From IMG/VR virus record IMGVR_UViG_3300041409_000458: a DNA stretch of 52,925 bases; one strand, written 5' to 3'. Below the pieces are notes generated by a model. It had not been told where the DNA came from. It saw nothing but the letters and a program-made list of their open reading frames with translations, and ran no database searches. Made by a program: the position numbers and the translations under genes. This document shows, one piece after another, positions 2,647-51,937 of this stretch (within the stretch, counting starts at the first letter, position 1; the number at the start of each line of letters is the position of its first letter). The stretch comes from a virus (Duplodnaviria; Heunggongvirae; Uroviricota; Caudoviricetes).

Positions 2647-2990
2647 TGAAAACTGCAAAATACTTAATTGTTATTGGTGTAATAATACAAATACTCACTA
2701 GTATGTTTTGGTTTCATATACCAAATATACAAATAGCTGAAATAGTAGAAGCATTAGGACAAATTGTAGGAGAGATATTATATTTTATAGCTTTTACGAG
2801 ATTATTTATAGAAGATAAAACCTTCAAGTATTTTCTTAGCTTTGTTAGAGATTTAATTATATTTGATATATTTGATATATTATTCTTAAATCCCTTTGAG
2901 ATAAGTACTCCAAAATATAGTAATTTTTATTTTGCAATAATTTTACTATTATATAAATTAATCAGAAAATTCTTAAAAAAAGAAGAATAA
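2646..2990 (+). CDS. Small multi-pass membrane protein
   Basis: About 4 hydrophobic segments and a basic C-terminus. TAATG coupling on both sides. Confidence 0.65.
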   Translation: MKTAKYLIVIGVIIQILTSMFWFHIPNIQIAEIVEALGQIVGEILYFIAFTRLFIEDKTFKYFLSFVRDLIIFDIFDILFLNPFEISTPKYSNFYFAIILLLYKLIRKFLKKEE

Positions 2991-3109
2991 TGGCTTGTGA
3001 AATAGTAATAAAACCGAAGGATGTACCTGTAAAACCTATTTACGTAGGAGCAGTAATGGAAAATTGCAGCTGTGATTCAACAACTACAACAACTACGGCT
3101 GCCCCATAA
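2990..3109 (+). CDS. 39-aa Cys/poly-Thr microprotein (not in ORF track)
   Basis: Translates to MACEIVIKPKDVPVKPIYVGAVMENCSCDSTTTTTTAAP. TAATG overlap with the upstream gene, and the same CxC...T(n)xAP ending as the next gene. Confidence 0.7.
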   Translation: MACEIVIKPKDVPVKPIYVGAVMENCSCDSTTTTTTAAP

Positions 3110-3119
3110 ATAATAATAT

Positions 3120-3521
3120 ATGAAAATAACTTGTAATAATTGTGAGGAATTAATGCAGAAATATCTATGTGATTTGCCTTCTGCGTGGTCAAAACAGATG
3201 GCTAAGGTTATCTGTAAGTTCATCAATCCTACTGTTCCTCTTGACTGTAATAGTGTTAAGAATTGTGAGACTTTAACCTCCTTATCCGCATTTACTGTGG
3301 ATGGAAGTGAGGTATGTATTACATACACTGATGAGAATGGTACAGCAGTTACTCGTTGTTTTGATATGAATGACGTAGGATTAGATTTGGACCCAAAATG
3401 TATAATGGACCAAGAAGATTGGGATTTGTTATCATGGAGAGACCAGATACAGGCAATTATTGACTATGCATGTACTTGTCAGCAGCACACTACAACCACA
3501 ACAACAACTATAGCTCCATAA
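3120..3521 (+). CDS. Cys-rich protein with C-terminal poly-Thr tail
   Basis: Paralogous to the N-terminal domain of the next gene (CETLTSLSAFTV vs CETVTSLSTFTV). Ends CTCQQHTTTTTTTIAP. Confidence 0.75.
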   Translation: MKITCNNCEELMQKYLCDLPSAWSKQMAKVICKFINPTVPLDCNSVKNCETLTSLSAFTVDGSEVCITYTDENGTAVTRCFDMNDVGLDLDPKCIMDQEDWDLLSWRDQIQAIIDYACTCQQHTTTTTTTIAP

Positions 3522-5200
3522 TGACTTATAATAATTGCGTAAAACAGGTAATAGAAGAATTAGATGCTCTCCCACAAGTGTGGGCAGAGAAGTTGGCATG
3601 TAATATATGCAGTTTGGTAGAAACTGAGGATGAATGTGCAACAACTTCGGACTGTCAGGATATCAGTGAGTGTGAGACAGTAACCTCATTAAGTACCTTT
3701 ACAGTAATTGATGACAAGATATGTATATCTTTCAAGGATGAAAGAGGAGTTACAGTAAAGCGTTGTTTTATAGCCTCTCAATTTACAGATGAGATAAACG
3801 AAACGGATGGTTTATGTATAGATTCGGATTGGAATACTTTCTCCTCAAAAGAGAAGTGGCAAGCAGTAATAGATAAAATCTGCAACTGCTGTAATCCAAC
3901 TACAACAACCACAACAACTTCTACCACAACAACTACCACAATACAAGAATGTCCTGATTGTTACACAATTAGATTCGTTAATCCGGATAATGAAGACCAT
4001 GATATTGATTATGTAAACTGTGATACCCTTAGTCCATCAAATATTACTCTTGGTGCAGGAGAAAGTGTAACTATTTGTGGATGTAGTGATAGTTTTGAGT
4101 ATGATAATGAAATTATAGCTGAGTTTATCAGTGACACTTGTAACGCTGAATCATGTGAGAGTTGCAATAAGTATACATTAATAAATAATTTAGATGAACC
4201 ACAGCAGATTCATTATATAGATTGTGCTACACAATTACCTGCATTTGTTTGGGTTCTTCCTAATGAAGAAACGATTATTGATTGTGCTTGTACTGATAGT
4301 GTTGTTATTCCAGACAGGAGTCCTGTTGAAATAATAGCTGTTGCTGACTGTGATGAAATAACTACTTCTACAACAACTACTACTACATTACCACCTTGTA
4401 GATGCTATAATGTTCAAAATCCGGGTGCTGTTGATAGGGTTCTTAATTACACAGATTGTGATGGTGATATACAACAGGAGGTTGTTCCTGCCGGAACAGG
4501 AGTACTCAGATGTGCTCCAAATGGTTTCATTAGTGGATTTGGATTAACTATCACAGACCTTGCTGCCTGTGCTGATATAGATGCTTGTAATAACGACCTT
4601 CTTACAACGACAACTACTACTACATCTACAACAACTACAACAACGGCAGCACCCACCACAACGACCACAACTACATCTACGACTACAATAACTACTGTTC
4701 CTATAGAGGAAGATATAGTATATTTCACCAATAGTCCTACAGTTGGAGATAGAGGTGCAATCGTATGGTTCTCAGCAAATGATTACTATACACCAAATAC
4801 TCCGGCTTCTTTAATACCAGCTAATTGCTTGAATATCAGTGATTTAGGACCTTCACCTGCTATTGAAATAGAGTTAAATTATTGGACAGATGATGATGAA
4901 GCTACAATTGATGATGGATTTGGAGACGTAAGAACACCTGATGGAACTAAGACAATTAATGTATCTACAGATTTATTAACATATAATGGAAGTAGTGGAG
5001 CTTGGCAGAGAGGAAATGGATTATTCACTTTACTTGAAGGAGCTAATATTGCAGCTTTTGAGATTACAAGTGTAACATCTGGTCTTACTTATAATGGAGT
5101 GAATCACCAGTTTAACTTACCACCAGCCAATCATTTTATAAGAGTTCATAATACATTCTCTGCAGGTGCAACAGGTGTAATATGGTTTGATTTAACATAA
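3521..5200 (+). CDS. Cys-rich, mucin-like poly-Thr repeat protein (probable virion decoration or fibre)
   Basis: Likely start is the ATG at 3521 (TAATG overlap; track start is 3470). Three poly-Thr tracts separate an N-terminal Cys domain, three ~60-70 aa Cys-containing repeats and a beta-rich C-terminal domain. Confidence 0.7.
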   Translation: MTYNNCVKQVIEELDALPQVWAEKLACNICSLVETEDECATTSDCQDISECETVTSLSTFTVIDDKICISFKDERGVTVKRCFIASQFTDEINETDGLCIDSDWNTFSSKEKWQAVIDKICNCCNPTTTTTTTSTTTTTTIQECPDCYTIRFVNPDNEDHDIDYVNCDTLSPSNITLGAGESVTICGCSDSFEYDNEIIAEFISDTCNAESCESCNKYTLINNLDEPQQIHYIDCATQLPAFVWVLPNEETIIDCACTDSVVIPDRSPVEIIAVADCDEITTSTTTTTTLPPCRCYNVQNPGAVDRVLNYTDCDGDIQQEVVPAGTGVLRCAPNGFISGFGLTITDLAACADIDACNNDLLTTTTTTTSTTTTTTAAPTTTTTTTSTTTITTVPIEEDIVYFTNSPTVGDRGAIVWFSANDYYTPNTPASLIPANCLNISDLGPSPAIEIELNYWTDDDEATIDDGFGDVRTPDGTKTINVSTDLLTYNGSSGAWQRGNGLFTLLEGANIAAFEITSVTSGLTYNGVNHQFNLPPANHFIRVHNTFSAGATGVIWFDLT

Positions 5201-5769
5201 TGATAGGGATATACAAAATAACAAGCCCTTCTGGTAAAGCCTATATTGGACAGTCTTGGAATATTCTTAAGAGGTTCATAGATTACAAATATTGTAATAA
5301 GGCACAGCGTTACATATATCATTCTTTGGCAAAACATGGGTATACAAATCATATATTTGAGATAGTTCATGAGCTTCCAGAGGACATAACACAGTCAATA
5401 CTAGATAGTTATGAACAATTGTATATTGATACACACAGGGATTGTGGGATAATTTTGATGAATATCAGAGAAGCTGGGACTGGAGGAAAACATAATGTTA
5501 GAACTAAGGAGTTAATGAGACTTGCATCATTAGGAAAACCTAAGTCGAAACAACATTGTATAAATAATGGTCTCGCAAAGAAGGGACAATATCCTAAATC
5601 AGCCAAGATAGTTGTTGACCTAATTACTAAGGAAATTTATCCTTCTGCTAGGGTTGCAGCTGACTCAATTGGAGTAACACATAGTACTCTAAAGAGTTAT
5701 TTAAATGGTACAAGAATAAATAAAACCAATTTACAATATGAACATAGCTATAACTTTGGTAGCAACTAA
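5200..5769 (+). CDS. GIY-YIG homing endonuclease (free-standing)
   Basis: GIYKITSPSGKAYIGQS motif, conserved E (SYEQLYI) and N (MNIREAG), C-terminal HTH/NUMOD1-like tail. Confidence 0.9.
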   Translation: MIGIYKITSPSGKAYIGQSWNILKRFIDYKYCNKAQRYIYHSLAKHGYTNHIFEIVHELPEDITQSILDSYEQLYIDTHRDCGIILMNIREAGTGGKHNVRTKELMRLASLGKPKSKQHCINNGLAKKGQYPKSAKIVVDLITKEIYPSARVAADSIGVTHSTLKSYLNGTRINKTNLQYEHSYNFGSN

Positions 5770-6499
5770 TGCTTACTTTATTCTTGGGTTGAGGTTTATG
5801 AAGAAGTTCATGAATCACTATAAGGGTAATAATACTATAACTTTTTATATATTTAGTGATGAAGACCCAAAACCATACCTTTCAGATAATATAAGGTTCA
5901 AGTATTTCTATAGAACTCATAAATGTTGGCAAGATGGAACAAATTCTAAATTTGCTAATATAATATCAATAGAGAAAGATTTAAAGGACGAAGATTATAT
6001 GTACCAATTCGATGCAGATACAAATATCACTAAAGATTTTACTGATGAATGGTTCCTTGGAGATTTGGTGGGTGGCGAACATTATGGAAACAGGAATTAT
6101 CTTAAAGATGGAGTAGGTTTTGACCACAATCCGAAAAGCAAAGCCTATGTTCCTTACTTCAGCAAGTTACCTTGTACTTACTATTATGGAGCATTCTTTG
6201 GAGGTAAGAAAGACAGAATGATAGATTTCTGCCAAACATTATATAATAATCAACTGGAAGATAAGAAGATACCTTATGAGCCAGTTGTTAATGATGAGAG
6301 TTACATTAATCAATATTTTCATTATAATCCTCCCACTTTAACAGTTCCTTGTGATAAGTTTGAATTTTTAGTTAGTGACAAAGGAGGAATAGGAGAAACC
6401 CGTAATACAAAATTAAATACGGATGAGTTCAGAAAACGCTTGCGTGAAAATACTAATAAGTTATTTGACATACAGCATAACAAGCTTATCTTTGTATAA
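5738..6499 (+). CDS. Glycosyltransferase family 6 (ABO / alpha-1,3-Gal-transferase-like)
   Basis: N-terminal IxLVATNAY, DxD motif (FDAD), YYYGAFFGG (human GTB YYMGAFFGG) and NDESYIN (human HDESHLN). Confidence 0.9.
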   Translation: MNIAITLVATNAYFILGLRFMKKFMNHYKGNNTITFYIFSDEDPKPYLSDNIRFKYFYRTHKCWQDGTNSKFANIISIEKDLKDEDYMYQFDADTNITKDFTDEWFLGDLVGGEHYGNRNYLKDGVGFDHNPKSKAYVPYFSKLPCTYYYGAFFGGKKDRMIDFCQTLYNNQLEDKKIPYEPVVNDESYINQYFHYNPPTLTVPCDKFEFLVSDKGGIGETRNTKLNTDEFRKRLRENTNKLFDIQHNKLIFV

Positions 6500-6510
6500 A
6501 ACCAACAAAC

Positions 6511-7455
6511 ATGATATATTTAAGTTGTCAGCCAGTGGATAGTTATTTCCTTTGGCAAGTAGAAGTACAGATTACAAATTTTCGTAAATTCGGAGTATCA
6601 GGAAAGATGCATATATTAGTTTGGTACCCTGAAAGAAGGGCTGCAGAACTGGAAGCATGGAGAGCTTTACAGGATAAATACCCGGAAACAAGATTCTTTT
6701 TTTATAAAGATGAAGGTGTTAATCTTGGATTATATATCTCTCAGCTTCGACCACATACTATAAAGAAGCATTTTGCAGCTATTCCGTCTCTCAAGAGAGA
6801 GACTATATTTTACCACGATAGTGATATAATATTCAATTATCTCCCTGATTTTGAGTCACTTTTGGACGATAATATCAATTGGCAATCAGATTGTTCAAGC
6901 TATCTTGATTACAATTACCTCAAGAGGAAAGAAAAGGAAGGTAATATTCCTGATGACGAAGCTGTAAAAATATTGGCTAATATCGGAAATATTCCGATAG
7001 AAGTCATTCAAAGTTACACAAATAAGACAGGTGGAGCTCAATGTATCCTCAAAGAAGTCGATTCAGCCTTCTGGTCCGATGTAGAAAGACAATGTATAGA
7101 GATAAGGAAAGCTTTCTGGTTTAATTCTCCTAACTCTATCAATAAAAAGTACTTTGAGAGTGAAAATAAGGGCTTTCAGAGCTGGTGTGCTGATATGTGG
7201 GCTCTTAACATGGCTTTGTGGAGTAGAGGAAAAATAACGAACGTAACACCACTTCTGGACTTCTCGTGGGCAACTTCAAGCATCGAAGAGTTTAATAAGA
7301 AGCCAATTTATCATAATGCCGGGGCAACCAAGGATAAATCTGAACTGTTCTATAAAGGAGATTGGATTCATAAATCTCCAATTGGTCAAGTTATTATCAC
7401 CAAACCTAACTCAGCATCCGAACAATATATCAAAGCTATACAAGAAGTAAAATAA
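6511..7455 (+). CDS. GT-A glycosyltransferase resembling plant peptide O-glycosyltransferases (HPAT/SGT1, GT95/GT96)
   Basis: Motifs in colinear order: SCQPVDSYFLWQ (cf. plant YFDWQ), YISQLRP (cf. INKP), FYHDSDIIF (DxD), GGAQ, WCADMWA (cf. WISEMY), IYHN. Confidence 0.65.
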   Translation: MIYLSCQPVDSYFLWQVEVQITNFRKFGVSGKMHILVWYPERRAAELEAWRALQDKYPETRFFFYKDEGVNLGLYISQLRPHTIKKHFAAIPSLKRETIFYHDSDIIFNYLPDFESLLDDNINWQSDCSSYLDYNYLKRKEKEGNIPDDEAVKILANIGNIPIEVIQSYTNKTGGAQCILKEVDSAFWSDVERQCIEIRKAFWFNSPNSINKKYFESENKGFQSWCADMWALNMALWSRGKITNVTPLLDFSWATSSIEEFNKKPIYHNAGATKDKSELFYKGDWIHKSPIGQVIITKPNSASEQYIKAIQEVK

Positions 7456-7502: not shown

Positions 7503-8147
7503 ATGGCACTATTAGATACATTAAAGACGACAGGTGAAGTATTAGGTAGCGTTATAGCGGTGGGAACCATTATTTGGAAAACCTTTGCTAAGAAGTGGTG
7601 GAATAGATACAGAGCTTCGCTACATGCTCGCTGGGACAAGTTAACTGCGGAGTTAGCTTCTCAGAATAGGGAAATTGCATCTATTAAGCACATGCTTTAT
7701 CCGAATGGTGGTAGTAGCATGTTTGATACCCAAAGAAAAATGTTATCTCAAGTAGAAAGTGTCATATTAAAATTAAATAGCTTACAAGTATCCAACAGAA
7801 ATACTTGGGATATTTTGGATATTGCTTCATGGGAATCTGATAGTGAAGGTAGAATTACTTATGTATCAATAGCTTTTTGTGATTTGATTGGTGCATCACC
7901 TTTAGAGGTAATGGGAAATTCATGGGTAGGAAGAGTTGCTTCATGGGACAGGGATATGGTTGTAAAACTATGGAGAGAATCAGTAGCAAATGGCTCCGAA
8001 TTCATATTAGTACATTCACTAAGAAGAAATGATGGTAAATATCAAATGGTACAGCCAATCGTTATACACAATAAAGATAAAGATGGTAAAGTTTTAAATA
8101 GTTTGGGTAGGCTTCTGAAAATTGGAGAACCTTATATACACGAATAA
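7503..8147 (+). CDS. Membrane-anchored PAS-domain protein in lysis cassette
   Basis: N-terminal hydrophobic helix followed by basic residues, a coiled coil, the PNGGSS motif, then a PAS signature (WESDSEGRITYVSIAFCDLIGASPLEVMGNSW ... RRNDGKY ... DKDGKV). Confidence 0.75.
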   Translation: MALLDTLKTTGEVLGSVIAVGTIIWKTFAKKWWNRYRASLHARWDKLTAELASQNREIASIKHMLYPNGGSSMFDTQRKMLSQVESVILKLNSLQVSNRNTWDILDIASWESDSEGRITYVSIAFCDLIGASPLEVMGNSWVGRVASWDRDMVVKLWRESVANGSEFILVHSLRRNDGKYQMVQPIVIHNKDKDGKVLNSLGRLLKIGEPYIHE

Positions 8148-8569
8148 TGAAGAGAATTTTTAAATATATAGAACCTTTATGGCAGGGTGCAGATGGTAAA
8201 ATATCTGTAAGGTCTGCTTTGGCTATAGCCTTCTCTATTGATTTTATTCATAATTTATCTCATGCCATCTTTAAATGGGATGGTGGTAGAACTCTTGAGG
8301 GTTTATCACTAGTTCTTGGTATTGAAGCTGGTCTAATAGTAGCTTTATTAGGTTTAACTACTTATCAGAACATGGCAGCTCAGAAGATTGACAGTCTTGC
8401 AGCAAATCCTACAGCTCCTGCCATCACAATTGAGAAGGTTGAGAACGTAAATACAGCTACAAATACAACTACAGCTAAAACTGTAAATGCTGCTCAAGTA
8501 GATACTGTTAATACAACAAACACAAATATTACATCAAAAGTACAAATCGACAATCCAGATGGTCAATAA
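8147..8569 (+). CDS. Putative holin
   Basis: Two predicted TM segments. Lies directly upstream of, and overlaps, the endolysin. Confidence 0.6.
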   Translation: MKRIFKYIEPLWQGADGKISVRSALAIAFSIDFIHNLSHAIFKWDGGRTLEGLSLVLGIEAGLIVALLGLTTYQNMAAQKIDSLAANPTAPAITIEKVENVNTATNTTTAKTVNAAQVDTVNTTNTNITSKVQIDNPDGQ

Positions 8570-9011
8570 AGCAACAGTAGACTTAATTAAGTCATTTGAG
8601 GGTCTGGTTCTGAAAGCCTATGTAGACCCCGGAACAGGTGGTGAACCAATAACAATTGGCTATGGAACCACTATATATAAAGGTATTCAGAAAGTTAAAC
8701 TGGGTGATAGTATCACTCCAGAGCAAGCTGAAATGTTCCTGACATACGATGTTAATACTTTCTCTGAAGGGGTAAAAAAGCTGATAACCAAGAACCTAAC
8801 GGAAAATCAATTTGGTGCTTTAGTATCTTTTGCTTATAATGTAGGTCTAGCAAACCTCAAAAACAGTACTTTACTTAAGAAAGTAAATGTTAATCCAAAT
8901 GACCCAGCTATTGCAACTGAGTTTGGAAAGTGGGTAAGAGCAGGTGGAAAGGTGATGAATGGATTAGTTAGGCGTAGAAATGCAGAATCAATGTTATACT
9001 TTAAAAAATAA
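8559..9011 (+). CDS. Endolysin, GH24 lysozyme
   Basis: FEGLVLKAYVDP...TIGYG catalytic E-x8-D-x5-T pattern; ALVSFAYNVG; GLVRRR. Confidence 0.93.
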   Translation: MVNKATVDLIKSFEGLVLKAYVDPGTGGEPITIGYGTTIYKGIQKVKLGDSITPEQAEMFLTYDVNTFSEGVKKLITKNLTENQFGALVSFAYNVGLANLKNSTLLKKVNVNPNDPAIATEFGKWVRAGGKVMNGLVRRRNAESMLYFKK

Positions 9012-9982: not shown

Positions 9983-10020
9983 GAAAAAGAAAAACCCTCC
10001 TAATTGGAGGGTTTTTTATT
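9983..10020. terminator. Bidirectional rho-independent terminator between convergent arms
   Basis: aaaaaccctcc-taatt-ggagggtttttt: a perfect inverted repeat with A/T tracts on both sides, where the + and - gene blocks meet. Confidence 0.9.
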
Positions 10021-13031: not shown

Positions 13032-13589
13032 TTATGCACGTCTGTTTTCTGCAATTCTTTTACACATATCAATGAAGTAATTTTCGGAAAATTTATTCTT
13101 CATAATATTAACATGTTTATGAACCCATTGAACATTATCTATTGAATAATCTTTATCTGAATCAATTCTATCCAATGATGCATTATAATCTCCTTTCCAC
13201 TTTTCAGGAAAGTGCAGAGGTAAACCAGTTAAAGCGCATTTTCTATCTTGTTTAAGAAATAGTGCCCACGCTTGGTCTATTGTTATTGTTACTTCTTTAA
13301 TTCTTCGACCACCTTTTTCACCAGATGCATTCCTTTTGATTTCGTACCAAAATCCACCAGATATTTCCCCAGAGCCTGTCCACTGATGATGATTTTTACC
13401 TATTGTTTTAATACAGCCACAATTAGTTATAGACATTTTTCTGAGATGGTGACCTAATACATTATGACTTTTACCACAGTCACAGACACATTCATATTTT
13501 ATATGTGTTTTTTGCCTATCTTCAATCTCTTTAACTACCGTTAAATGTCCAAACTTCTTTCCAATCAAATCAATTTTACTCTTACTCAT
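13032..13589 (-). CDS. HNH homing endonuclease with N-terminal Cys-rich DNA-binding module
   Basis: IGKKFGHLTV...CVCDCG...NCGC, and SLDRIDSDKDYSIDNVQWVHKHVN. Likely start is the ATG at 13589 (track start 13670 runs through the promoter). Confidence 0.85.
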   Translation of the reverse strand: MSKSKIDLIGKKFGHLTVVKEIEDRQKTHIKYECVCDCGKSHNVLGHHLRKMSITNCGCIKTIGKNHHQWTGSGEISGGFWYEIKRNASGEKGGRRIKEVTITIDQAWALFLKQDRKCALTGLPLHFPEKWKGDYNASLDRIDSDKDYSIDNVQWVHKHVNIMKNKFSENYFIDMCKRIAENRRA

Positions 13590-13610
13590 AGTATATAACA
13601 TTTTATAACA

Positions 13611-13642
13611 CAAATATACGAAATAAAATGTTATATACCAAA
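13611..13642 (-). promoter_or_regulatory. Bacteroidota sigma70-type promoter of the HNH gene
   Basis: TTTG-N20-TATATTTG, a perfect consensus match. Confidence 0.75.
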
Positions 13643-13648
13643 TAAGTT

Positions 13649-15916
13649 TTACATCCTTACAATTTCGCATTGGCCGCCGCTACAAGCGGTTGCTGCATAG
13701 TCACTCACATCCTTATATTCAGGCTTTGTTAAAATTTTCGATAAATCAATATCCTTATACTTTTTACAAATTGTTTCCCACTTATGTAAGATGTGAATAT
13801 CCTTAAGACAGCTAACCATCTTTTCAACATCACCTTTGAAGTAGTTCTTAGCAAACTTCTTACCTCTGTCCAGCCAGTATTTCTTAAGCAGAACTTGTTC
13901 TCTTGTTCCTGTAATAGGAATTTCCTTCTTGATATCCAAGATTGTAGAACAAGCAAGCCAAAGATTTTCATCGAAATAATGCAAGGCATCAACGATTAAT
14001 CCAGCTGCAAACATACTTCCCACTCCATAGAGCTTAATGATATCTTCCATAGGAACAACTTCTGTGTATGGTGCCTGAGCCCATCCTCTACTACCCATAT
14101 TAGATAAAAATGATATAGCTGTGAAAGATTCTCTATTATCCCATATGTAATTAATTACATCTGTCTTATCATCTTCTACAATTACAGTACATGATACATT
14201 ATGAGTGATACCTTCATAAGCACATCTCTCAGGTACAGTTCCCGGAATAACCCAGTTCTCTTGTACCAGTTTGATATACTCCAAATGCTTAACTCCTATA
14301 ATGTCATTCTTCAGGATTGCTCCTTCAGGAACACTAATAGGAACATATATTACATAATCACTCTTTGTGTCACTATGAACACTTTCTTCAAGCATGAATG
14401 GCATGTTTTCCTGCATATATTTGGCTACCGTAGACTCTTTGTTAATTTGCATGACTCTAAGGTATCTTGCAGCCTCCTCAGCTTTCAATCCTCCAGTTGT
14501 CATAGCAATAGTACCACTATTTCCTCCGGGCTTCACACAGGTTGTACGGGCTGCTGGATTGATTCCAATTATTTTGGCTATCTTCTCATTGGTCTCGATT
14601 ACCACCTGAGCTCCCTTTTGCAACCACTCTGGATTAAACAATTTAGGATTATTCATCCAACCTATTATAGAAACTCCTAATAAGCTCTCTCCTGCAAAGA
14701 TTTGTTCACTGATTTTTCCCAGATAAGGGAAAGAAACGTATCCTGCCTGACAGGTTCCCAGTACAGCAGCATCCTGACAAGCTCTTAGGAACTGTTCTAG
14801 GGTCTTAATTCTTTCAGCTACAATCTCATTAAGGTTACAACCTTGGACTCCAAAAAGGTCTTTATTAACCCTTGTAAACTCTTCTACGTGCTCATAGAGT
14901 ATCTTCTTGAGGTCTCCTCTGTATAGAATTGGAAGCTTGGAGATTTCATAACATGGATTGAACATATCAAACCAGCTATTGGCAAACACGAATCCTACAT
15001 CATTCATTCCATTATTCAGGTTCACAATCCTTTCGAATTGTTCCTTTGTAACATCACCCCTGATTAATAGAACACTATTGTTTGTACGTTCTCTTTGCTT
15101 ATTTTCCTGATACCAGTTACCTGTCTTGGACATTATCATTTCCTCATCATAAGGGTCAATGATAAAGTTTAGAGCTGCTCTTCTTACACCTCCAGAGAGA
15201 ACTGCATTGGACATGTGACAAATAATATCACCGACAGCAATAGGTCTAAGTTTATTTCCCTCTTTGGCTATCCAGTTATCCATCAACTGTTCAATCTTCT
15301 CCAGACAATTCTTCAATGGTTCGTATCCCGGAGCCTTGAAACCACCACTGATGTATGAACCTTTTTCCCTGATTTGACTTCCATCAAACCTGATTTTGCA
15401 ATTTGCGAATTGCGGAAAGGGCTGATTATCAACAAAGTAAGAGGACATTAGAACACCAACGGCATCTGCCCATCCTTCAATACTATCTTCGATGATATAG
15501 GTCACTGTTCCATTCTCTCTGGCTTGTACACGAGAGATATTATTAACGAATGGAATTAATAGTGATGTACCAACTCCACAGCCATTCAAAGCAAGATAGA
15601 AGACTTCCTGAAATACAGTGTTCCTCATGGCATGTGTTGAAACACAATTGTACATACGTAAATTACTTCTCTCAATTTGAGGATATCTATACTGAAGATT
15701 CCTCTGACTGGCTAAGACGCTCATATCTTTTACACTCTCGAGAGCTGAGAGTAAGTATGGTTCCAATTCCGGATTATTACCATACTTCAACCTGTGTCCA
15801 TTAATAATGTCCTCTGAGGCATCTTCCCATGTTTCGTAAGAACCCTTTTTTTCGTCCCACTTGAAATAGTCAGTATGCAATTTCAAATCTGACAGAAATT
15901 TTTTTCCAGTTTTCAT
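13649..15916 (-). CDS. nrdJ: Ribonucleotide reductase, probably monomeric class II (AdoCbl-dependent)
   Basis: YNC, NPCYE, GCNLNE and TCVKP motifs; IEDSIEGWAD effector region; C-terminal CSGGQCE. No beta subunit in the window and no intein. Confidence 0.8.
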   Translation of the reverse strand: MKTGKKFLSDLKLHTDYFKWDEKKGSYETWEDASEDIINGHRLKYGNNPELEPYLLSALESVKDMSVLASQRNLQYRYPQIERSNLRMYNCVSTHAMRNTVFQEVFYLALNGCGVGTSLLIPFVNNISRVQARENGTVTYIIEDSIEGWADAVGVLMSSYFVDNQPFPQFANCKIRFDGSQIREKGSYISGGFKAPGYEPLKNCLEKIEQLMDNWIAKEGNKLRPIAVGDIICHMSNAVLSGGVRRAALNFIIDPYDEEMIMSKTGNWYQENKQRERTNNSVLLIRGDVTKEQFERIVNLNNGMNDVGFVFANSWFDMFNPCYEISKLPILYRGDLKKILYEHVEEFTRVNKDLFGVQGCNLNEIVAERIKTLEQFLRACQDAAVLGTCQAGYVSFPYLGKISEQIFAGESLLGVSIIGWMNNPKLFNPEWLQKGAQVVIETNEKIAKIIGINPAARTTCVKPGGNSGTIAMTTGGLKAEEAARYLRVMQINKESTVAKYMQENMPFMLEESVHSDTKSDYVIYVPISVPEGAILKNDIIGVKHLEYIKLVQENWVIPGTVPERCAYEGITHNVSCTVIVEDDKTDVINYIWDNRESFTAISFLSNMGSRGWAQAPYTEVVPMEDIIKLYGVGSMFAAGLIVDALHYFDENLWLACSTILDIKKEIPITGTREQVLLKKYWLDRGKKFAKNYFKGDVEKMVSCLKDIHILHKWETICKKYKDIDLSKILTKPEYKDVSDYAATACSGGQCEIVRM

Positions 15917-15919
15917 ATT

Positions 15920-16561
15920 TTATTTTATTTTAAAGTTAGTTTTAATAAGCTCATTGAGTTTTTCAAGTTTCCTATTAAGGAATAGATTTGCATCCTTATA
16001 GAGTAAATCTTTAAGCAAAAGAATATCTTTCCTCTTCTGAATAGCAATTACATATTGTTGTAAATGACCCAACTGTCTTATTTTAGGTTTTGTTATTGTA
16101 GGATTTAGATTATTATCTATATAAAAATCATATATCTGTTTAGAGAATGCTTCAGATACAGTAACTATATTACACCTGATACCAGTACTTTGACTATTAG
16201 AAAAACAACCATCACCGTCTATAATCCCTCTCATAATATCTCTGTTCATAGGAATTTTGAGATTAAGGGTGCCAGACTTTCTTTCAGTGATACCATAGTC
16301 ATTTAGAGTTTTTACACAATCCTGATTGCTGAACGCAACTTGATATAAGATTTTGTTAAATCTTTTATCATTTATTGTATGAATATTTAGTGGATAATTG
16401 CTCCACTTTACAAATTTTTCTAATATCTCCTTATCTTTTTCCTGTAAATTAAAGGTTAATTTACCTTTGTGGATGCAACCGTCTGTTGCAATAAGACCAA
16501 TCCAGTAACAGGTATCTGAATCTAATGTTTCAAATAAATCATGTTTTACTATTCCATTCAT
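15920..16561 (-). CDS. Free-standing LAGLIDADG endonuclease
   Basis: Two motifs, YWIGLIATDGCI and IMRGIIDGDGCF. Confidence 0.88.
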   Translation of the reverse strand: MNGIVKHDLFETLDSDTCYWIGLIATDGCIHKGKLTFNLQEKDKEILEKFVKWSNYPLNIHTINDKRFNKILYQVAFSNQDCVKTLNDYGITERKSGTLNLKIPMNRDIMRGIIDGDGCFSNSQSTGIRCNIVTVSEAFSKQIYDFYIDNNLNPTITKPKIRQLGHLQQYVIAIQKRKDILLLKDLLYKDANLFLNRKLEKLNELIKTNFKIK

Positions 16562-22416: not shown

Positions 22417-23094
22417 TTACTTCACGTTATATTGGGTACTACCCACTACAATACTTGCTATTCTTCCTATTTTTGGACTAATGTAACCTAAAGGTGATTT
22501 CTTTTGACCTTTAATTGCATCCTTATCTAATGTTTTACCATTGATTAAAGTTACAGATTTAAATGTAGGATTTTGAGCAAATCTTAATACATCAGGCCAA
22601 TCAACCTTCTTGGCTTGAGCCTTAATGCCAGTATTCTGAACTGTATTTGCAGTTCCACTTCCAGCAACAACATTTTTAGTTATTGTTTTCTTTGGTCTTG
22701 GAGTTACAGGCTTTACAACCGGCGAACCAACTAAGGAATAAGTACGATAAGTACCATTGTCAGTGTAAGTAAATACACCATCACCAGCTAACTGGTCCAT
22801 AAATTTGCTTACAGTATCCTGTGTCCAGAAAAAATAAGGATAATCTCTCCGTAACTCAGTCTTAATTTCTAGAGTTGTTACGGTGTTGTTGGCTTTAGCC
22901 AAACTTGTTGCCACTGTTAGGCAAGCATCTTTCATTGCTTTCATATCTGTTGTTTTTAATTTTACTTGATTTGAGTTTACGGATATACAATTTCCTTCTG
23001 AATCACAAATATCCAGTCTACCATCCTTAAGGAGACGGAATACTTTAAAGGGTTCTACTAGAACCACTTCATCTCCGATTTTTATTTCAGCCAT
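22417..23094 (-). CDS. Hypothetical protein coupled to PARP (possible winged-helix core)
   Basis: Overlaps the PARP stop. Helix pattern TTLEIKTELR...TVSKFMDQL followed by a beta hairpin. Confidence 0.55.
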   Translation of the reverse strand: MAEIKIGDEVVLVEPFKVFRLLKDGRLDICDSEGNCISVNSNQVKLKTTDMKAMKDACLTVATSLAKANNTVTTLEIKTELRRDYPYFFWTQDTVSKFMDQLAGDGVFTYTDNGTYRTYSLVGSPVVKPVTPRPKKTITKNVVAGSGTANTVQNTGIKAQAKKVDWPDVLRFAQNPTFKSVTLINGKTLDKDAIKGQKKSPLGYISPKIGRIASIVVGSTQYNVK

Positions 23095-24278
23095 ATGATA
23101 TATTTTATGCGATTTTGTTGCTCATTATAAGCAATAATCTCGCTGTTAAGTAATCCATTACCAGCTTTAACAAAGGTACTATCGAATCCTCTTTTCTGTA
23201 ATTCTGAATAATTCAGTGGAAATGAGTTTCCCCGGAACCAGCCATCATAAACAAAAGGGTTTCCTGTGTGTACTTCATACACGAGAATTATTTTATCAGG
23301 GTCACTACCCGTATAACCTAAAGATTTCTGCATGTGCTCAGAGAAATAGTTACCATCACCATAAGCTTTACCTGAGAACTGAAAGTTTCCACCTGTAGGT
23401 CGAATCTTTAATCCTATCTCAAGTATGGGAATAACTGAAGTACAACGTGTACCATGAATTAAATGTTTCGTTGATTTGTCCTTCTGTTTGCCAACCCAGC
23501 CGTCAAACGTACTATCTTCTGCAGGTTTGTTAACCTCGAAAATAGCATGAACTTTTCTACCATGGCTTTGCTTTAATAGGTAATCAATCTCCTTGTATAC
23601 CTTGGCCTCAGCCATTGTGAGCCCGAGTTTGTCTAGCATGGTTTGAGATTTTTTAGTCTCGGCTTTTTTCTCTTTAGCTGTTTTAGGTTTGATTAAAGAT
23701 ACTTGAGCAGCCATAGCATCCAGATTATCCTGTTCACTTACCAAGGTCTTATTAAGTTTGATATTTGGCAAAAGATAATCATTTACTTGTCCCATTCTAC
23801 GAGGAATAACCGTGTAAAGTTCTACCAGTTTATCATTTACTTTTTTAGCTCCTGTCATTGTAGAATCGTCCATCTTATTTAACTCATCAATAATCTTCTG
23901 AGCTGCGTCTACTTGTTTTTGACTTACTGCCTCAGCTTTAACAGAATATGTAGTAGAAACCAGTCTATCTGTGTAAGCTTTCATTAAAACCAAGAAGTCA
24001 TTTACCAGCTTTTCCTTAACGTTCTCTAGAGGTGTATTATCCTTGGCTACCTTTGTCACTTCAACTGTTACAAAGTCTGTGACGTCTTTATATCCTTTTC
24101 TAATCTTCTCATTATATTTTGTACTCCACATGTGCATTGGGTAACTTGCAGTTTGTACAGTACTTTCTACTCTTCCGTATTTAACGTTAAAGTTTGAACC
24201 ATTGGCTTGCATTTCATAAAACTTATTGTTATTATTAGTGCTAACCATTATCAGTTTAGCATATTTTTCGTTGCTCAT
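23082..24278 (-). CDS. PARP-family ADP-ribosyltransferase (WGR + regulatory HD + catalytic)
   Basis: WGR: NNNKFYEMQ...KYGRV. HD: SQKQVDAAQKII...ELYTVIP. Catalytic: HGT, GDGNYFS, KSLGY, NSEIIAYNEQQNRIKY. The H-Y-E triad is intact. Confidence 0.92.
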   Translation of the reverse strand: MSNEKYAKLIMVSTNNNNKFYEMQANGSNFNVKYGRVESTVQTASYPMHMWSTKYNEKIRKGYKDVTDFVTVEVTKVAKDNTPLENVKEKLVNDFLVLMKAYTDRLVSTTYSVKAEAVSQKQVDAAQKIIDELNKMDDSTMTGAKKVNDKLVELYTVIPRRMGQVNDYLLPNIKLNKTLVSEQDNLDAMAAQVSLIKPKTAKEKKAETKKSQTMLDKLGLTMAEAKVYKEIDYLLKQSHGRKVHAIFEVNKPAEDSTFDGWVGKQKDKSTKHLIHGTRCTSVIPILEIGLKIRPTGGNFQFSGKAYGDGNYFSEHMQKSLGYTGSDPDKIILVYEVHTGNPFVYDGWFRGNSFPLNYSELQKRGFDSTFVKAGNGLLNSEIIAYNEQQNRIKYIIWLK

Positions 24279-24840
24279 TTTCTAGAGTTTTTAAGTAAAC
24301 CAATTTAATTGCCTGTCGAGCTGAATCAGTAAGATTCCTAGAACCTATACCTGCATAATTTTGAGTTAAAATAGGAATAAGTTCAGGTTTAAATTCAGTT
24401 CCATTCCAATAAAACCAGAATCCTTTAATAATATCAAAAACATGTACAGGTTTTCCCATCTGAATAGCCATTTCACAAGCCCAAGCTGTACCTCCAGCTA
24501 CTATTTGTTTCCCTGTAAGGTTTGAAAATCCTTTATCTTTATCAAAAGGTTGTACAATTCTGGAAATAGCAAATATAGCATCAGCTCCATTAGCTTGAAA
24601 CCAATTCCTTCTTACTAAATCCTTTCCGGGAAATTCCTCTGTTGGTCGTTGTAAAGCTGAAGCAGCAGCAAATACATCAGTTTCAATGAGTTGTTTTACT
24701 TCAGCTGAAGCACGTTTTAAGTCAGAGGGACGATAGTGCTTATGATTATTAAACCCATGCTCTCTACCGATTCTGTCCCATTCCATATCTGCTCCTTCAC
24801 AGCCTCCGCTGTGGTTAATATAGTTATTCATATTCTTCAC
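24256..24840 (-). CDS. SLOG-superfamily (YspA/DprA-like) nucleotide-binding protein
   Basis: HSGGCEGAD, RRN...ADAIFAI, GGTAWACEMA, AGIGSR. Confidence 0.7.
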   Translation of the reverse strand: MKNMNNYINHSGGCEGADMEWDRIGREHGFNNHKHYRPSDLKRASAEVKQLIETDVFAAASALQRPTEEFPGKDLVRRNWFQANGADAIFAISRIVQPFDKDKGFSNLTGKQIVAGGTAWACEMAIQMGKPVHVFDIIKGFWFYWNGTEFKPELIPILTQNYAGIGSRNLTDSARQAIKLVYLKTLENEQRKIC

Positions 24841-25909
24841 GATTTAATTTGATGATGTATGGAAAACGTGGAATGTCATCAGGAGTTCTGTTAAAGTATT
24901 TAACAGTTGCCTTAGTTCCAATATATTTTGCTCTTTCATTCCAGATAGTAGCAAGATATTCAAAATCTCCTTTTACATTACTCTTAAAGGTTTTATCCTT
25001 CTTATCATGTTTCATAACGAAATATCCAATTGTTCCTGCACGTCCACCTTCACCTTCAATGGCATCAAGAATTACAAACTCTTCATCTATGAAATCTTTC
25101 TTCTTAAGTAACTGTTTACTTCTCTTTTTCTCATAGTTTCCCAAATCGAGACGGATAATTGAACCTTCGAAGCCCATTTCCAAAAATTGGTCATGGTAAC
25201 GGTCAATATCTTTCTGATTTTTAACTTCGTAAGTTGGAACAAGTACAAGATTAGGATTAGGATTAGCTGCTAACCATCTCTTTAGAGCGATAAGTCTATC
25301 TGAGAATTTACCTTCATGGTCTGGAAAATCATAAACCCACATTTGAACCACGTCCTTACTTTCCTGAAGCTCTTCCTTAGTTGGAGTTTGTTTCTTACAA
25401 AGGCTTACAATCTTATTGAAATCATCGTGATATTTGTGATTATACAATTCTCCATCTAGAGTGACTTTATCCTGATACAAGTGAGGAGCAGCAAGATAAG
25501 CCTTACCATTTCTACTCATTAGAGTATTATTAGCATTAACAGCCCGTAGTCCATCAAGCTTAGGCTGTATGAAAGTTGGGACAGTAAAGAGTAATTTCTC
25601 GTACTTTCCCAACTCATGAGCCAACATAGGTTCAAAGAATTTCTTTTCATCTGTTAAAATTTCATTATAACCTCCATCAATCTTCTTCTGCCATTTGGCT
25701 TGTGCTTCCGCCAATGCCTGTTGTTCTGGAGTTGTTTCATTACTTCTACCAACGTTTTTTGCTTTACAAATAGTTGGTTTTGAGGTTGTTATTGTTCCTC
25801 CTTGAATACCTTCTTCAGTAAAGAAGTGGTCGTCCTCAGCTGTTATCTGCCAAGTCTGTATTTGTCCCTTCTGGGTGTACTTCAGGAGGAGTGGGAATGT
25901 TTTCTTCAT
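24824..25909 (-). CDS. ATP-dependent DNA ligase
   Basis: QPKLDG (motif I), SRNGK, LDGELY, EGSIIR, LLKKK, PRFP. Confidence 0.93.
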   Translation of the reverse strand: MKKTFPLLLKYTQKGQIQTWQITAEDDHFFTEEGIQGGTITTSKPTICKAKNVGRSNETTPEQQALAEAQAKWQKKIDGGYNEILTDEKKFFEPMLAHELGKYEKLLFTVPTFIQPKLDGLRAVNANNTLMSRNGKAYLAAPHLYQDKVTLDGELYNHKYHDDFNKIVSLCKKQTPTKEELQESKDVVQMWVYDFPDHEGKFSDRLIALKRWLAANPNPNLVLVPTYEVKNQKDIDRYHDQFLEMGFEGSIIRLDLGNYEKKRSKQLLKKKDFIDEEFVILDAIEGEGGRAGTIGYFVMKHDKKDKTFKSNVKGDFEYLATIWNERAKYIGTKATVKYFNRTPDDIPRFPYIIKLNREEYE

Positions 25910-26103: not shown

Positions 26104-26409
26104 TCATATTTCTATTATTAAAGGTTTGGTTATTAATTGAGTATAATCATTCGTCAGAACTGCTCCATTAGAGAACATTACTCTTCTGCTATTAGATACG
26201 CTTTTAAGATGAACTCCAAAATTGTCATGAATGTGACCAGAACAATGAAGTTTAAGACTTGTAAGCCTCTTTTTGATTACTTCAAATAAGTCTTCACATC
26301 CGACATGTCCATCTTTATGCCAAGCAGTTCTGTTTGCAGCGTCAACCATATCTAAGATTCCGAATGCTGGTCCATGAGTGTCTGATATGTGAACAATTTT
26401 TAAACTCAT
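26104..26409 (-). pseudogene. Metallophosphoesterase with in-frame internal deletion
   Basis: Motif I (ISDTHG) joins directly to motif IV context (THGPAFGILD). GD and GNHD motifs are missing; HVGC and GHIH are kept. Confidence 0.7.
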
Positions 26410-26843
26410 TTGTGTATTATATTTTTTGTTGAAAGGTTGTTATCTAAATAGTGAATAGCTTTTGTAAGTAGGTCCTTTCTATCATCAAAATAGCCTATTC
26501 CAAAATTGCATTTAGTGCATAGTAAACCTCTGATAATTTTGCTATTATGACAATGGTCTATGGATAAATTTCTTCCATTTTCTCCAATAGTTTTCCCACA
26601 AATAGCACATTTACCTTGTTGTTCATCAAGTAGAATCTGATAGGTGTTTTTTGAAATGCCTGTTTTGTGTTTCAGACTATTCCAATTCCTTGAAGTTCTA
26701 TTAATTTTAGCACGTTTGACACATTGTTTTGTGTTACAAACTCTGCAGTCAGGTCTTAAGCCATCTTTCTTCTGCTTATCTTTATAAAATTCACTAAGTG
26801 GTTTTGGTACACCACATTTTGTACATGTTTTTAAATCTTCCAT
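26406..26843 (-). CDS. Endonuclease VII-like HNH homing endonuclease
   Basis: CTKC...CRVC N-terminal zinc finger; QQGKCAIC...IDHCH...RGLLCTKCN. Confidence 0.88.
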   Translation of the reverse strand: MEDLKTCTKCGVPKPLSEFYKDKQKKDGLRPDCRVCNTKQCVKRAKINRTSRNWNSLKHKTGISKNTYQILLDEQQGKCAICGKTIGENGRNLSIDHCHNSKIIRGLLCTKCNFGIGYFDDRKDLLTKAIHYLDNNLSTKNIIHK

Positions 26844-33022: not shown

Positions 33023-33547
33023 TTAAAAGGGTAATACTTGGCTCTCTTCCCATTTATCTTTATCCCAGTAGATATGAAAACGGTTAGCAGACCAGATAAT
33101 CTTGTTAATTTCCTCAAAAACTCCTTTGGAGTCCCAATCTGTATGAGTGTGAGATGCAGCTGCCGGATGACTCAACTTGATAATCTTACAAAAAGGATTA
33201 ATATATTTCTCCATAGCTAATGAAGCCTGTCCACATAACACATAAACTATATGTGTTTCACTTCTAAGAACTTCTTCGAGGAGATATTTCTGGAAAGGTT
33301 CCCATAATTTGCTATGAGAAGCTGTTTTACCCAATTTGCAGGTTAAATCTGTGTTTAGGAGCATTACCCCTTGTTCATGGAGATAGTCCAAGGATTTGTC
33401 GTATTTGACCCTGTAGCCCATCTCTTTGGTTATGGCATCATACCAGTTAACTAAGGATGGCTGTAATTTGCCATCTGGACTATTAGAACAGTCCATTGCG
33501 ATGCCGGATGCTTGAAAGGCACCATTCGAGTACTTACGTGGGTAAGG
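33023..33547 (-). CDS. ung: Uracil-DNA glycosylase, exon 2
   Basis: Begins PYPRKY...ASGIAMD and contains QPSL, QGVMLLNT, H..LW.PF and SHPAAA. Follows the intron's terminal G at 33548. Confidence 0.9.
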   Translation of the reverse strand, partial: PYPRKYSNGAFQASGIAMDCSNSPDGKLQPSLVNWYDAITKEMGYRVKYDKSLDYLHEQGVMLLNTDLTCKLGKTASHSKLWEPFQKYLLEEVLRSETHIVYVLCGQASLAMEKYINPFCKIIKLSHPAAASHTHTDWDSKGVFEEINKIIWSANRFHIYWDKDKWEESQVLPF

Positions 33548-34522
33548 CAGTATTGTTATCGTTGGTCTCTTTATACCAACTTCTACACTTTCTTTTGTTA
33601 TTTGTGTAGCTCAGACTATATCATCACTTGTTTCACTACAAGTGTTGGGAGCTCGTGGATATATTATATTCTAAGATGTTATTGTCCTCTGAGCAATTAA
33701 CTAGTGTATAGCCTGTCAATAACTACTATACATCATTTCTTAGTTTCAATATCTAGTCGTTGAACCCACTAGAGTTATTAAGCTCTAGGTCGGCTGCTGA
33801 TTGTCTGCTTCCAGAGGTTCCAGCAATTCACCCAATTTTAGATGGACCATCTTATACTTAAAACATTCTAGTATGTAAGGTCGTACTATTTCGATTAATT
33901 TTTCACAACTTTTAGAGGACACTCTTATTGTATTATCACTTTTATTATAGGTAGATATAATCTCCCACTTTCTTTTGAGTAAATCAATAAGAAATAGGAT
34001 ATCTTCCTTGGTAAAAGACTGAGTATTAATGGTTATACAAGAAGACCTATTCTTCCTGTTCCATATATTCCCATCATCCATATACCAAATAGCTAAACCA
34101 AAATCATCTAGCTTTTCAACATCTTCTCTATTAACTCCCTTGCCATTTTCTCCGTAGTACTTTTGACGATATTCAGAAAACAAAGGGTGTGACCTAGATG
34201 TGAAGCTATGAGATATACATTCTCCACTTTTGTAACGTGGAGATTTATGTGTATATGTTCTCATTTTACACAAAATACCAAAGCTTTCAAGGAAATTCCT
34301 CTTCCACTTTAAGTAATCTAGTTGTTTTGTAGAGTGTGTAAAAGCCATATAACTCATGGTCTTTGATGTTTTTTGTGGGGATAGCCATCCATCTCCTAAA
34401 AGTGAACCTCTTATAAATTGTTCAAGTTGTTCTTTCTCAGTAATTTGTATGTATTTCATACAATAAATATACTGAAATTATCTGATAGTAGACTATCCAA
34501 AATGTTAAGCAATTGTTATTTA
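33548..34522 (-). mobile_element. Group I intron (975 nt) in UDG, with LAGLIDADG ORF in the P1 loop
   Basis: 5' exon ends in U and the intron ends in G. IGS GUCCAUC (33841-33847) pairs with exon GAUGGAU, with a U.G pair at the splice site. P4 UGCUG/CAGCA (33821-33825 / 33795-33799). P7 GACUA (33754-33758) / UAGUC (33614-33618). Confidence 0.92.
33785..34459 (-). CDS. Intron-encoded LAGLIDADG homing endonuclease
   Basis: FIRGSLLGDGWL and LAIWYMDDG. The ORF's 3' end overlaps the intron core. Confidence 0.9.
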   Translation of the reverse strand: MKYIQITEKEQLEQFIRGSLLGDGWLSPQKTSKTMSYMAFTHSTKQLDYLKWKRNFLESFGILCKMRTYTHKSPRYKSGECISHSFTSRSHPLFSEYRQKYYGENGKGVNREDVEKLDDFGLAIWYMDDGNIWNRKNRSSCITINTQSFTKEDILFLIDLLKRKWEIISTYNKSDNTIRVSSKSCEKLIEIVRPYILECFKYKMVHLKLGELLEPLEADNQQPT

Positions 34523-37315: not shown

Positions 37316-38011
37316 TTACTGATATTTAAAATGTGATTTATATATAGATTTTAATCTTCCTTTACAACAAGCTACTATATGAGTAGATAAAATTCCTGTG
37401 GAATCTGAAGCCTCTTTTACTGAATTGTAAGGAGTTTCTTTACCGAGTGGACTTATATAAAGTACTGGTTTAAGCTTGGCTTCTAACCACTTTTCTGTGA
37501 GAGTAGGACCTTTTCCTTTTCTTATCTTACTATGATTTTTCTTCCTCTCTTGAGTCCATTCACCTTTCGGTTTACTCATTCTCTTTTTTGTTAAATCAGA
37601 GAGTTTTTTTCCCATATGTCTAATAGAAATTAGTTGTTTTGTTTCCTCACTCAATTTCTTTCCTCTATGAGCATCACCAATCTTCTTCCTACCTTCTTCA
37701 GTAAGAGTATATTTCTTAGAATCTGAAGTTATGGTTAGATTATATCCTTTCTTTCTATCATATGATTGAAAAGTTCGGCACCAGAAATTCTCTCTTATAC
37801 ATAGCTTCTCCTTATTACACTCCTCTATTAGTTCCATTCTAAAGGATTTCTCTCCATACTTATTCCAAGAACTTTGGAGATGAGGATTTGGATGAGTTTT
37901 ACCCTTAAGTCTACTTAGGTGATATTTCCATCTTTTTTCCACATTAACAGATTGTCCAACATATATTTTACTGTCCAGCAGGTTTGTTATCTTATAAATT
38001 CCACATTTCAT
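37316..38011 (-). CDS. GIY-YIG homing endonuclease with NUMOD3 repeats
   Basis: GIYKITNLLDSKIYVGQS; repeated HxGKKLSEETK. Likely start is the ATG at 38011. Confidence 0.9.
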   Translation of the reverse strand: MKCGIYKITNLLDSKIYVGQSVNVEKRWKYHLSRLKGKTHPNPHLQSSWNKYGEKSFRMELIEECNKEKLCIRENFWCRTFQSYDRKKGYNLTITSDSKKYTLTEEGRKKIGDAHRGKKLSEETKQLISIRHMGKKLSDLTKKRMSKPKGEWTQERKKNHSKIRKGKGPTLTEKWLEAKLKPVLYISPLGKETPYNSVKEASDSTGILSTHIVACCKGRLKSIYKSHFKYQ

Positions 38012-38057
38012 AGTTACTTGTTTTATACAAGATACAAAATAAAATGTTAACAAAGCG

Positions 38058-40526: not shown

Positions 40527-41096
40527 TTAATTTGCTGACTTCATTGTCAGCCGAGGACTCATTCGAGTCGCTTTTCTTCCTAAGAAAGGAAGTCTTTGTT
40601 CTACACACATGTCATACAAGAAAATTTTACCTTTGTAGGTTTTTAAGTAGCCTAGACAACAGGATTGTACGCCTTGTCTTTCAAAGGTAGGATATTTATT
40701 TTTCAAATCTAAGTATCCTTCAAATTTTTCCATAAATTTACCATCTTTAGTAAACTCGTAAATAGGAATCATTCTTTTATTCTTACCAGATAAAATAACT
40801 CCTTCTCCTCCTTCTGTTTCATTTAATAAATTGAAGTTCCAAGTTCTTAATTGAGAAATCCAATATTGTTCTGTCTGAATCCAATTAGATTCGTTACATT
40901 CATCTATAACTTCAAGAACTGGAGAGAATCCTGCATTAAGAATTCCTTTTATCCAAGCATTTTTACGACACTTGGTTGATTTCTTTGCAGTACAAATATG
41001 TTTAGCTAATCTATTGTATAAATCAACAGATTTACCCACATATCTAATCTCTCCAGTTCTTGGGTCTGTTATAGTATAAATAAAAACTTTCCTCAA
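40527..41096 (-). CDS. GIY-YIG homing endonuclease
   Basis: FIYTITDPRTGEIRYVGKS...R...EQYWI...LLN; C-terminal NUMOD1-like domain. Confidence 0.88.
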   Translation of the reverse strand: MRKVFIYTITDPRTGEIRYVGKSVDLYNRLAKHICTAKKSTKCRKNAWIKGILNAGFSPVLEVIDECNESNWIQTEQYWISQLRTWNFNLLNETEGGEGVILSGKNKRMIPIYEFTKDGKFMEKFEGYLDLKNKYPTFERQGVQSCCLGYLKTYKGKIFLYDMCVEQRLPFLGRKATRMSPRLTMKSAN

Positions 41097-51453: not shown

Positions 51454-51937
51454 AATTTTTTAAATATTTAAGTGCCTTTTTTAATAACTCAGGGTCATCG
51501 TTGAAATTACCCAAAGCTGAATTACATTTAAAACATAATAAAGCCCTAACTTTTCCCGTTTTATGGTCATGGTCAACGGCCATAACTTTATGCTTATCAC
51601 GAGTCTCAGTTCCTCTACATATAGCACATTTTCCTCCTTGATTCTTCAACATCTTGTTGAAATCATCAAGAGTGATACCATACATTCTCTTAAGATGAGC
51701 TTTTCTTGAACAAACAATTCCTTCAGGAGAACTATAAAATTTCTTCCTTTTGTCCCTATTTAAGAGGTTGGCTTCTTTGACCTTATCAGGATTTTTAAGA
51801 TTCCATTTTCTGCTAGTCTCATTTCTACAGATTTTACATCTATATGTAAATCCTGACTTGTCATATTTGTCCTTGGTGAAATGGTCTGAATCAAGGGGTT
51901 TCTCCTGATTACAACCTGTACATATTCTTTTTTCCAT
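51422..51937 (-). CDS. Endonuclease VII-like HNH homing endonuclease
   Basis: CTGC...CKIC; QGGKCAIC...VDHDH...RALLCFKCN. Confidence 0.88.
   Translation of the reverse strand: MEKRICTGCNQEKPLDSDHFTKDKYDKSGFTYRCKICRNETSRKWNLKNPDKVKEANLLNRDKRKKFYSSPEGIVCSRKAHLKRMYGITLDDFNKMLKNQGGKCAICRGTETRDKHKVMAVDHDHKTGKVRALLCFKCNSALGNFNDDPELLKKALKYLKNYESDNINGLL

Follow-up and report, generated by a model that had tools for sequence, protein, structure and literature searches.

In plants, hydroxyproline arabinosyltransferases (HPAT1-3; CAZy GT95, PF23452) and serine galactosyltransferases (SGT1/SERGT1; CAZy GT96) belong to families that are described as related, and HPATs, which act on hydroxyproline, are type II membrane proteins of the Golgi (PMC8012813). 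GT95 enzymes transfer arabinofuranosyl groups to hydroxyproline. SGT1 attaches an alpha-galactosyl group to peptidyl serine, modifying the peptide hydroxyl itself, in structural proteins that are rich in repeats. No solved structure was found for the HPAT/SGT1 superfamily. In phages, virion glycosylation by phage-encoded transferases is described for the mycobacteriophages Che8 and Rita, with glycans on the C-termini of capsid and tail tube proteins (Freeman et al. 2023, PMID 37329881, as recounted in PMC11256854 and PMC12619734), and none was detected when ten other phages were surveyed (PMC12894461). Within the literature found, and as far as these accounts go, mycobacteriophages are the only reported case. 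Here we analyzed a 52,925-nt stretch (the window) of the virus record IMGVR_UViG_3300041409_000458, whose full length is 146.7 kb (76% complete), and focused on the gene at 6511-7455. We propose, at a probability of roughly three in four, that its product adds the first sugar to poly-threonine (poly-Thr) tags of virion proteins, perhaps extended by an adjacent GT6 enzyme.

Family and fold of the 6511-7455 product

The gene is an intact open reading frame (ORF) of 314 amino acids, from ATG to TAA, and the same gene is called in a public assembly. Its product was matched over the full length by phrog_4417, a family of unknown function (E 2.7e-53), and a single-sequence search gave no Pfam, NCBIfam or PDB sequence match. 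The sequence-only reading had implied a lone plant-like member. Instead, it belongs to a large prokaryotic and phage family. Clustering at 90% left 1,473 relatives and clustering at 50% identity left 760; homologs occur in 77 phage-collection records and at 74 loci in prokaryotic genome assemblies.

The four motifs picked out in that reading, YFLWQ (aa 12-16, 6544-6558), LRP (aa 79-81, 6745-6753), DSD and WCADMW, are present in the order given, and GGAQ (174) and FYKG (280) were also recognized. In an alignment of 214 sequences (213 homologs and the query), Y75, D103, D105, Y131, G175 and Q177 were conserved in 100%, and H268 and K282 in 99%; position D228 is occupied by D or E in 97%. Such a pattern is as would be expected of an active enzyme. 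The product is confidently predicted to fold as a GT-A glycosyltransferase, combining a Rossmann-like fold with the conserved DxD and C-terminal His of this class. The protein begins at the catalytic domain and has no hydrophobic segment (maximum 19-residue hydropathy 0.86); it is thus presumably cytoplasmic and lacks the Golgi type II anchor of GT95.

We compared phrog_4417 with profiles of real PF23452 members from metagenomes, which were fetched with a short degenerate motif and then verified with Pfam. The motif order of an SGT1-like two-domain protein (L274) is YFDWQ / YPAINKP / LDADM / GGVI / WISEMY / LHYG / F[DS]K, as in the phage protein, and that of plant HPAT is Y..WQ / YIVLNRP / EPDH / GNSP / WVLEMY / IHYT / FDK. 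The phage enzyme therefore shares with SGT1 the ordered series YFxWQ, YxxxxxP with R/K, DxD, GG, WxxE/DM, H and FxK, whereas it differs from HPAT in having DxD instead of ExD. HHalign aligned phrog_4417 with HPAT/PF23452 profiles over 233-249 colinear columns (238-249 columns at E 4e-6 to 3e-5; best result 238 columns, E 4.3e-6, probability 87%; about 18% profile identity), with the conserved blocks in the same order throughout the catalytic domain. Reversed profiles aligned over 35-38 columns and the GT8, GT6, GT2 and GT60-like sets over at most 58, so that the colinearity already suspected by eye is beyond chance. The SGT profile, which consists of only two domains of one protein, gave E 0.004-0.007 over 96-98 columns. 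GT8 (PF01501) had no Pfam match in 110 phrog_4417 members, and its profile alignment spans 19-51 columns.

The model of the protein had a TM score of 0.74 to a PF23452 model and 0.72 to a viral PF11397 fusion model, and at most 0.51 to solved GT8, GT24 and GT6 chains, the scores for the PF23452 model and for the solved chains coming from different programs and both Atlas sides being predicted structures. On these models, PF23452 is the closest structural neighbour among named families, with PF11397 close behind. PF11397 represents the GT60 Skp1-hydroxyproline GlcNAc transferases, which are likewise peptidyl O-transferases but had no profile support here; the PF11397-like control set was weak, giving marginal hits only, and is a poor stand-in for GT60.

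The protein itself had no PF23452 hit (curated cut-off 23.9 bits), and the orthologs L005 and L003 scored 13.9 and 15.5 bits. Among 48 carrier records one PF23452 match was obtained, below the cut-off, and none was found in 301 Bacteroidota-phylum genomes, where the positive control was likewise silent. Against a purpose-built eukaryotic HMM, the single protein scored only E 0.096. HPAT and SGT1 profiles align with each other at E 1e-17, compared with 4e-6 for phrog_4417. Since the cut-off was missed and the profile score was weaker, phrog_4417 is placed by its profiles as a sister family to HPAT/SGT1 and not as a member of GT95/GT96. Remote homology to these families, which by profile and model are its nearest characterized relatives, thus stands from the sequence-only reading, and membership does not. 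Acquisition of a genuine GT96/GT95 gene from a plant or alga would account for the SGT1-like motifs (YFDWQ, DAD) and for PF23452 being assigned to 10-40% of members in some Atlas clusters of related phage proteins. We regard this origin as very improbable, given the sub-threshold scores, the low profile identity and the size and diversity of the family in phages and Bacteroidota.

Poly-Thr tags and the proposed acceptor

The phage-collection homologs belong to Lactobacillus, Enterococcus, Staphylococcus, Lactococcus, Clostridium and Chryseobacterium phages and are nearly all labelled hypothetical; no Mycobacterium actinobacteriophage was named among the listed matches or host tallies. Poly-Thr proteins were encoded near the enzyme gene in all seven phages inspected, and a poly-Thr ORF lay within about 8 kb of it in 77 of 87 phage loci. 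In the Bacillota phages among the seven, the poly-Thr proteins include annotated capsid, tail-tube or small head proteins with terminal Thr runs. The Thr-rich neighbours noticed in the window are real ORFs as well (Table 1).

To control for these associations we used paired comparisons, as a lysozyme-anchored control scan returned no loci. Among Lacticaseibacillus prophages sharing one capsid type (capsids at least 94% identical), a poly-Thr capsid tail was seen in 33/33 enzyme-bearing and 0/16 enzyme-less prophages, and a tail-tube Thr tail in 32/33 and 2/16, respectively. Along the capsid tree, the enzyme gene switches between presence and absence three times or more, although these counts are non-independent because the capsid and enzyme genes adjoin. 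In two complete crAss-like relatives (capsid 83% and 65% identical) the enzyme gene is absent, the genome of this phage serving as the positive control, and no poly-Thr ORF occurs in 155 kb each, though homologs of the tagged proteins persist. In five fragmentary crAss-like relatives, the tags are on other proteins of the same module. None of 630 Thr tracts used one codon only, and a microsatellite origin was rejected on account of the mixed codons. Thus, the poly-Thr tag shifts among unrelated proteins and follows the enzyme, being gained and lost tightly with it. In a group of large aquatic phages (L010-L073; records up to 271 kb), the enzyme gene adjoins one whose product, of 800-1,100 aa, contains long repeats of the TTTTTAAP type.

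These data, together with the Thr-rich bacterial precursors described below, support the Thr-peptide acceptor suggested from the window, and go well beyond what could be seen there; the evidence for poly-Thr as acceptor is strong but indirect. Because the phage-encoded transferase is linked to hydroxyl-rich tags on structural proteins, crAss-like and other carrier phages very probably sugar-coat their own particles. In this cytoplasmic, metal-dependent enzyme, DxD, H268 and a metal would hold a host nucleotide-sugar, and late in infection, during assembly, the sugar would be moved to Thr hydroxyls of the tracts in structural proteins; the GT6 enzyme may add a second sugar in this lineage. A retaining mechanism may be expected by analogy with GT95/GT96. 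As the motifs are nearer SGT1 than HPAT, we guess that the donor is a host UDP-hexose or HexNAc. Tag glycosylation might serve particle stability, shielding or surface adhesion. Compared with SGT1, the phage enzyme is a single soluble domain with no signal or anchor, and its proposed acceptor is poly-Thr, with no hydroxyproline.

Several observations weigh against this proposal. Ten of the 87 phage loci have no Thr tract nearby, two enzyme-less Lacticaseibacillus prophages keep the tail-tube Thr tail, and one enzyme-bearing phage is without it. Linkage of the adjacent capsid tail and enzyme gene inflates the count in this set, and its Fisher p of 3e-13 overstates independence. Five related records, fragments that are 11-90% complete, carry tags and no enzyme. 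The major capsid of this phage is untagged, and its tagged proteins, whose location in the virion is presumed by analogy, have no family annotation. Catalysis and virion tag modification are both computational predictions.

The enzyme could instead act on the tags without initiating, either elongating after host priming or transferring another group such as sugar-phosphate. The top solved-structure matches of the model were indeed GT8-type elongating enzymes and glycogenin, phosphotransferases were also among the matched GT-A folds (ranks 30 and 36), and donor identity leaves room for such a role. This is unlikely, as among full-length relatives the nearest are peptidyl transferases that initiate (PMC8012813), the enzyme-tag pairing occurs in Bacillota and Bacteroidota phages alike, often without another transferase alongside, and the bacterial clade adjoins peptide precursors.

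We see only a slim chance that the enzyme is a host-surface-modifying moron (receptor masking or serotype conversion) with the Thr tracts as merely co-inherited linkers. Many carriers are temperate, the gene forms an insert of roughly 0.6-1.2 kb that separates the capsid and adaptor genes, and GT6 enzymes usually act on glycans. The protein has no membrane segment, however, and a linker role is impossible for C-terminal tracts. Moreover, tags occur on non-homologous proteins, some of which are encoded over 50 kb away from the enzyme gene in this phage, and are lost genome-wide without the enzyme. Glycosylation of modified bases in the phage DNA, as by T4-type viral DNA-hypermodifying transferases, is highly improbable: DNA glucosylation by phage glycosyltransferases is known (PMC12619734), but the gene lies in structural/late modules rather than replication modules, no thymidylate-synthase-fold hydroxymethylase was found in the 76%-complete record, and the co-variation with Thr tags would be left unexplained. 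A GT2 search of the virus record found none; a Tet/JBP search was uninformative, as its controls gave no match.

The proposed poly-Thr system resembles that of mycobacteriophages, as far as the latter is recounted in the papers cited above, in its phage-encoded transferase and its capsid and tail-tube C-terminal sites, which are here predicted from genes. It differs in that the carriers infect Bacteroidota and Bacillota, the tag is a multi-site poly-Thr tract, and this crAss-like phage tags accessory Cys-rich proteins, not the major capsid. No paper was found on the phrog_4417 family or poly-Thr tags (most subscription journals were outside the search), nor any linking phages, crAss-like ones included, to HPAT or to poly-threonine or Thr-rich tails; papers returned by broader searches do not, going by title and abstract, deal with this family. 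If the proposal is correct, virion glycosylation would reach beyond mycobacteriophages, to crAss-like phages as well as to phages of Lactobacillus, Lactococcus, Enterococcus, Staphylococcus and Clostridium that matter for dairy, the gut and therapy, and would be readable from sequence by the rule of enzyme plus poly-Thr tag. Cultured carriers exist (iLp84/PLE3, phiFL1A, VPE25, phiCTP1 and MA9V-3), so direct tests are feasible. The HPAT/SGT1 superfamily would gain small soluble prokaryotic relatives, and a cytoplasmic single-enzyme tag system could serve as a glyco-engineering tool.

Chromosomal relatives in Bacteroidota

In prokaryotic assemblies, 56 of the 74 loci encode fusions of more than 400 aa, which group together in a midpoint-rooted tree; the second domain is GT7C in some. 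The genes neighbouring the 74 loci encode C39-ABC exporters (34/74), HlyD, radical SAM/SPASM, grasp-with-spasm and LanC proteins. In adjacent double-glycine precursors, Thr makes up 20% of the first 15 residues of the core, compared with 7% background. The clade was noticed across L176-L246 (for example, L194:1994-2230, L222:5615-5863, L190:1832-2032 and L193:2417-5953). The clade sits in clusters for ribosomally synthesized and post-translationally modified peptides (RiPPs), and the precursors are candidate glycosylated RiPPs. With the phage tags and the bacterial precursors, the family occurs beside Thr-rich peptides in two different settings.

Glycocin clusters also have C39-ABC exporters and double-glycine precursors, and their glycosyltransferases, such as SunS, belong to GT2. 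This is a different family, whose profile does not align with phrog_4417. A literature search on RiPP glycosylation in Chitinophaga found no paper, and the clade points to a possibly unrecognized class of glycosylated RiPPs. Overall, we lean towards phrog_4417 being a prokaryotic sister family of plant GT95/GT96, so far undescribed, whose enzymes start O-glycosylation on peptidyl-threonine and with which Bacteroidota phages (crAss-like and larger) and Bacillota phages would glycosylate virions via a portable poly-Thr tag, some with a blood-group-type GT6 cap, and the fused Bacteroidota clade would glycosylate ribosomal peptide natural products.

Gene neighbourhood and minor observations

The 146.7-kb record also encodes portal, terminase, capsid and proteins of 4,705 and 1,742 aa. 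The best terminase matches are crAss-like phages (26-27%), so the host is likely a member of Bacteroidota. On the + strand, the gene order is tail-fibre-like, three poly-Thr ORFs, GIY-YIG endonuclease, GT6, the 6511-7455 gene, PAS, holin-like and endolysin (Table 1). Two further poly-Thr ORFs of 256 aa (L398:1761-2528) and 80 aa (G000:C1:129467-129709) lie outside the window, about 55 kb from the enzyme gene, downstream of the capsid operon and with Cys-rich genes around them.

Table 1 Features of the enzyme gene and its neighbours in the window.
Position	Strand	Feature	Basis
2990..3109	+	39-aa Cys-containing ORF ending CDSTTTTTTAAP; candidate acceptor	ORF reading, public gene call
3120..3521	+	133-aa Cys-rich protein with terminal T7-IAP tail; candidate acceptor	ORF reading
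3521..5200	+	559-aa Cys-rich protein with four Thr tracts (3899-3940, 4361-4387, 4604-4645, 4655-4687); candidate acceptor, putative virion protein	ORF reading
5200..5769	+	GIY-YIG homing endonuclease, between acceptor genes and the two transferases	Domain match
5738..6499	+	GT6 (ABO/alpha-3-GalT-like) glycosyltransferase, 11 nt upstream of 6511-7455; candidate elongating enzyme, accessory	PF03414 E 6.7e-16; ABO transferase E 2e-13
6511..7455	+	GT-A glycosyltransferase, phrog_4417, HPAT/SGT1 sister family; proposed initiating peptidyl-Thr O-glycosyltransferase	Profile, fold, alignment
6817..6825	+	DxD (D103-S-D105), putative metal/diphosphate-binding motif; both Asp invariant	Alignment; role from GT-A knowledge
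7183..7200	+	WCADMW (aa 225-230), aligned with WISEMY/WVLEMY of SGT1/HPAT; D228, candidate acceptor-side acidic residue	Alignment; putative role
7312..7323	+	HNAG at 268; H268, candidate C-terminal metal ligand, aligned with HY of HPAT/SGT1	Alignment

The longest ORF of the 559-aa protein would begin at 3470. Its likely start is 3521, as this overlaps the preceding stop codon (TAATG) and agrees with the public gene call and the ortholog in L001, the closest relative. L001 is without the endonuclease found at 5200-5769. The GT6 protein has a DAD motif and YYGAFFGG, the latter lining up with the loop that sets donor specificity in blood-group B transferase. Only three other phrog_4417 loci carry a GT6 gene (L001, L005 and L007), and a conserved partnership was rejected for this reason. 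In other crAss-like carriers, genes judged by eye to be GT2-like and methyltransferase-like occupy the same slot (L002:6524-7240 and L008:6747-7989), which suggests that glycan-capping enzymes are exchangeable between them.

The 7503-8147 product carries a PAS domain and is hydrophobic over a segment at its N-terminus; the gene lies directly upstream of the holin-like gene (8147-8569) and the endolysin gene (8559-9011), and relatives have other small membrane genes in its place. Promoter matches were at chance level only. A bidirectional terminator-like hairpin (9989-10017) and a GC skew switch mark the junction of the + strand late run and the - strand replication arm. Besides the GIY-YIG gene at 5200-5769, candidate homing-endonuclease-like ORFs lie at 13032-13670, 15920-16561, 26406-26843, 33785-34459, 37316-38053, 40527-41096 and 51422-51937; that at 33785-34459 adjoins a uracil-DNA-glycosylase-like ORF (33023-33496) and may interrupt it. 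At 23082-25909 and 49900-51453, inspection by eye suggests a PARP-like ORF (WGR-type N-terminus), a DNA-ligase-like ORF and a nicotinamide phosphoribosyltransferase-like ORF, possibly genes for NAD salvage and ADP-ribosylation.
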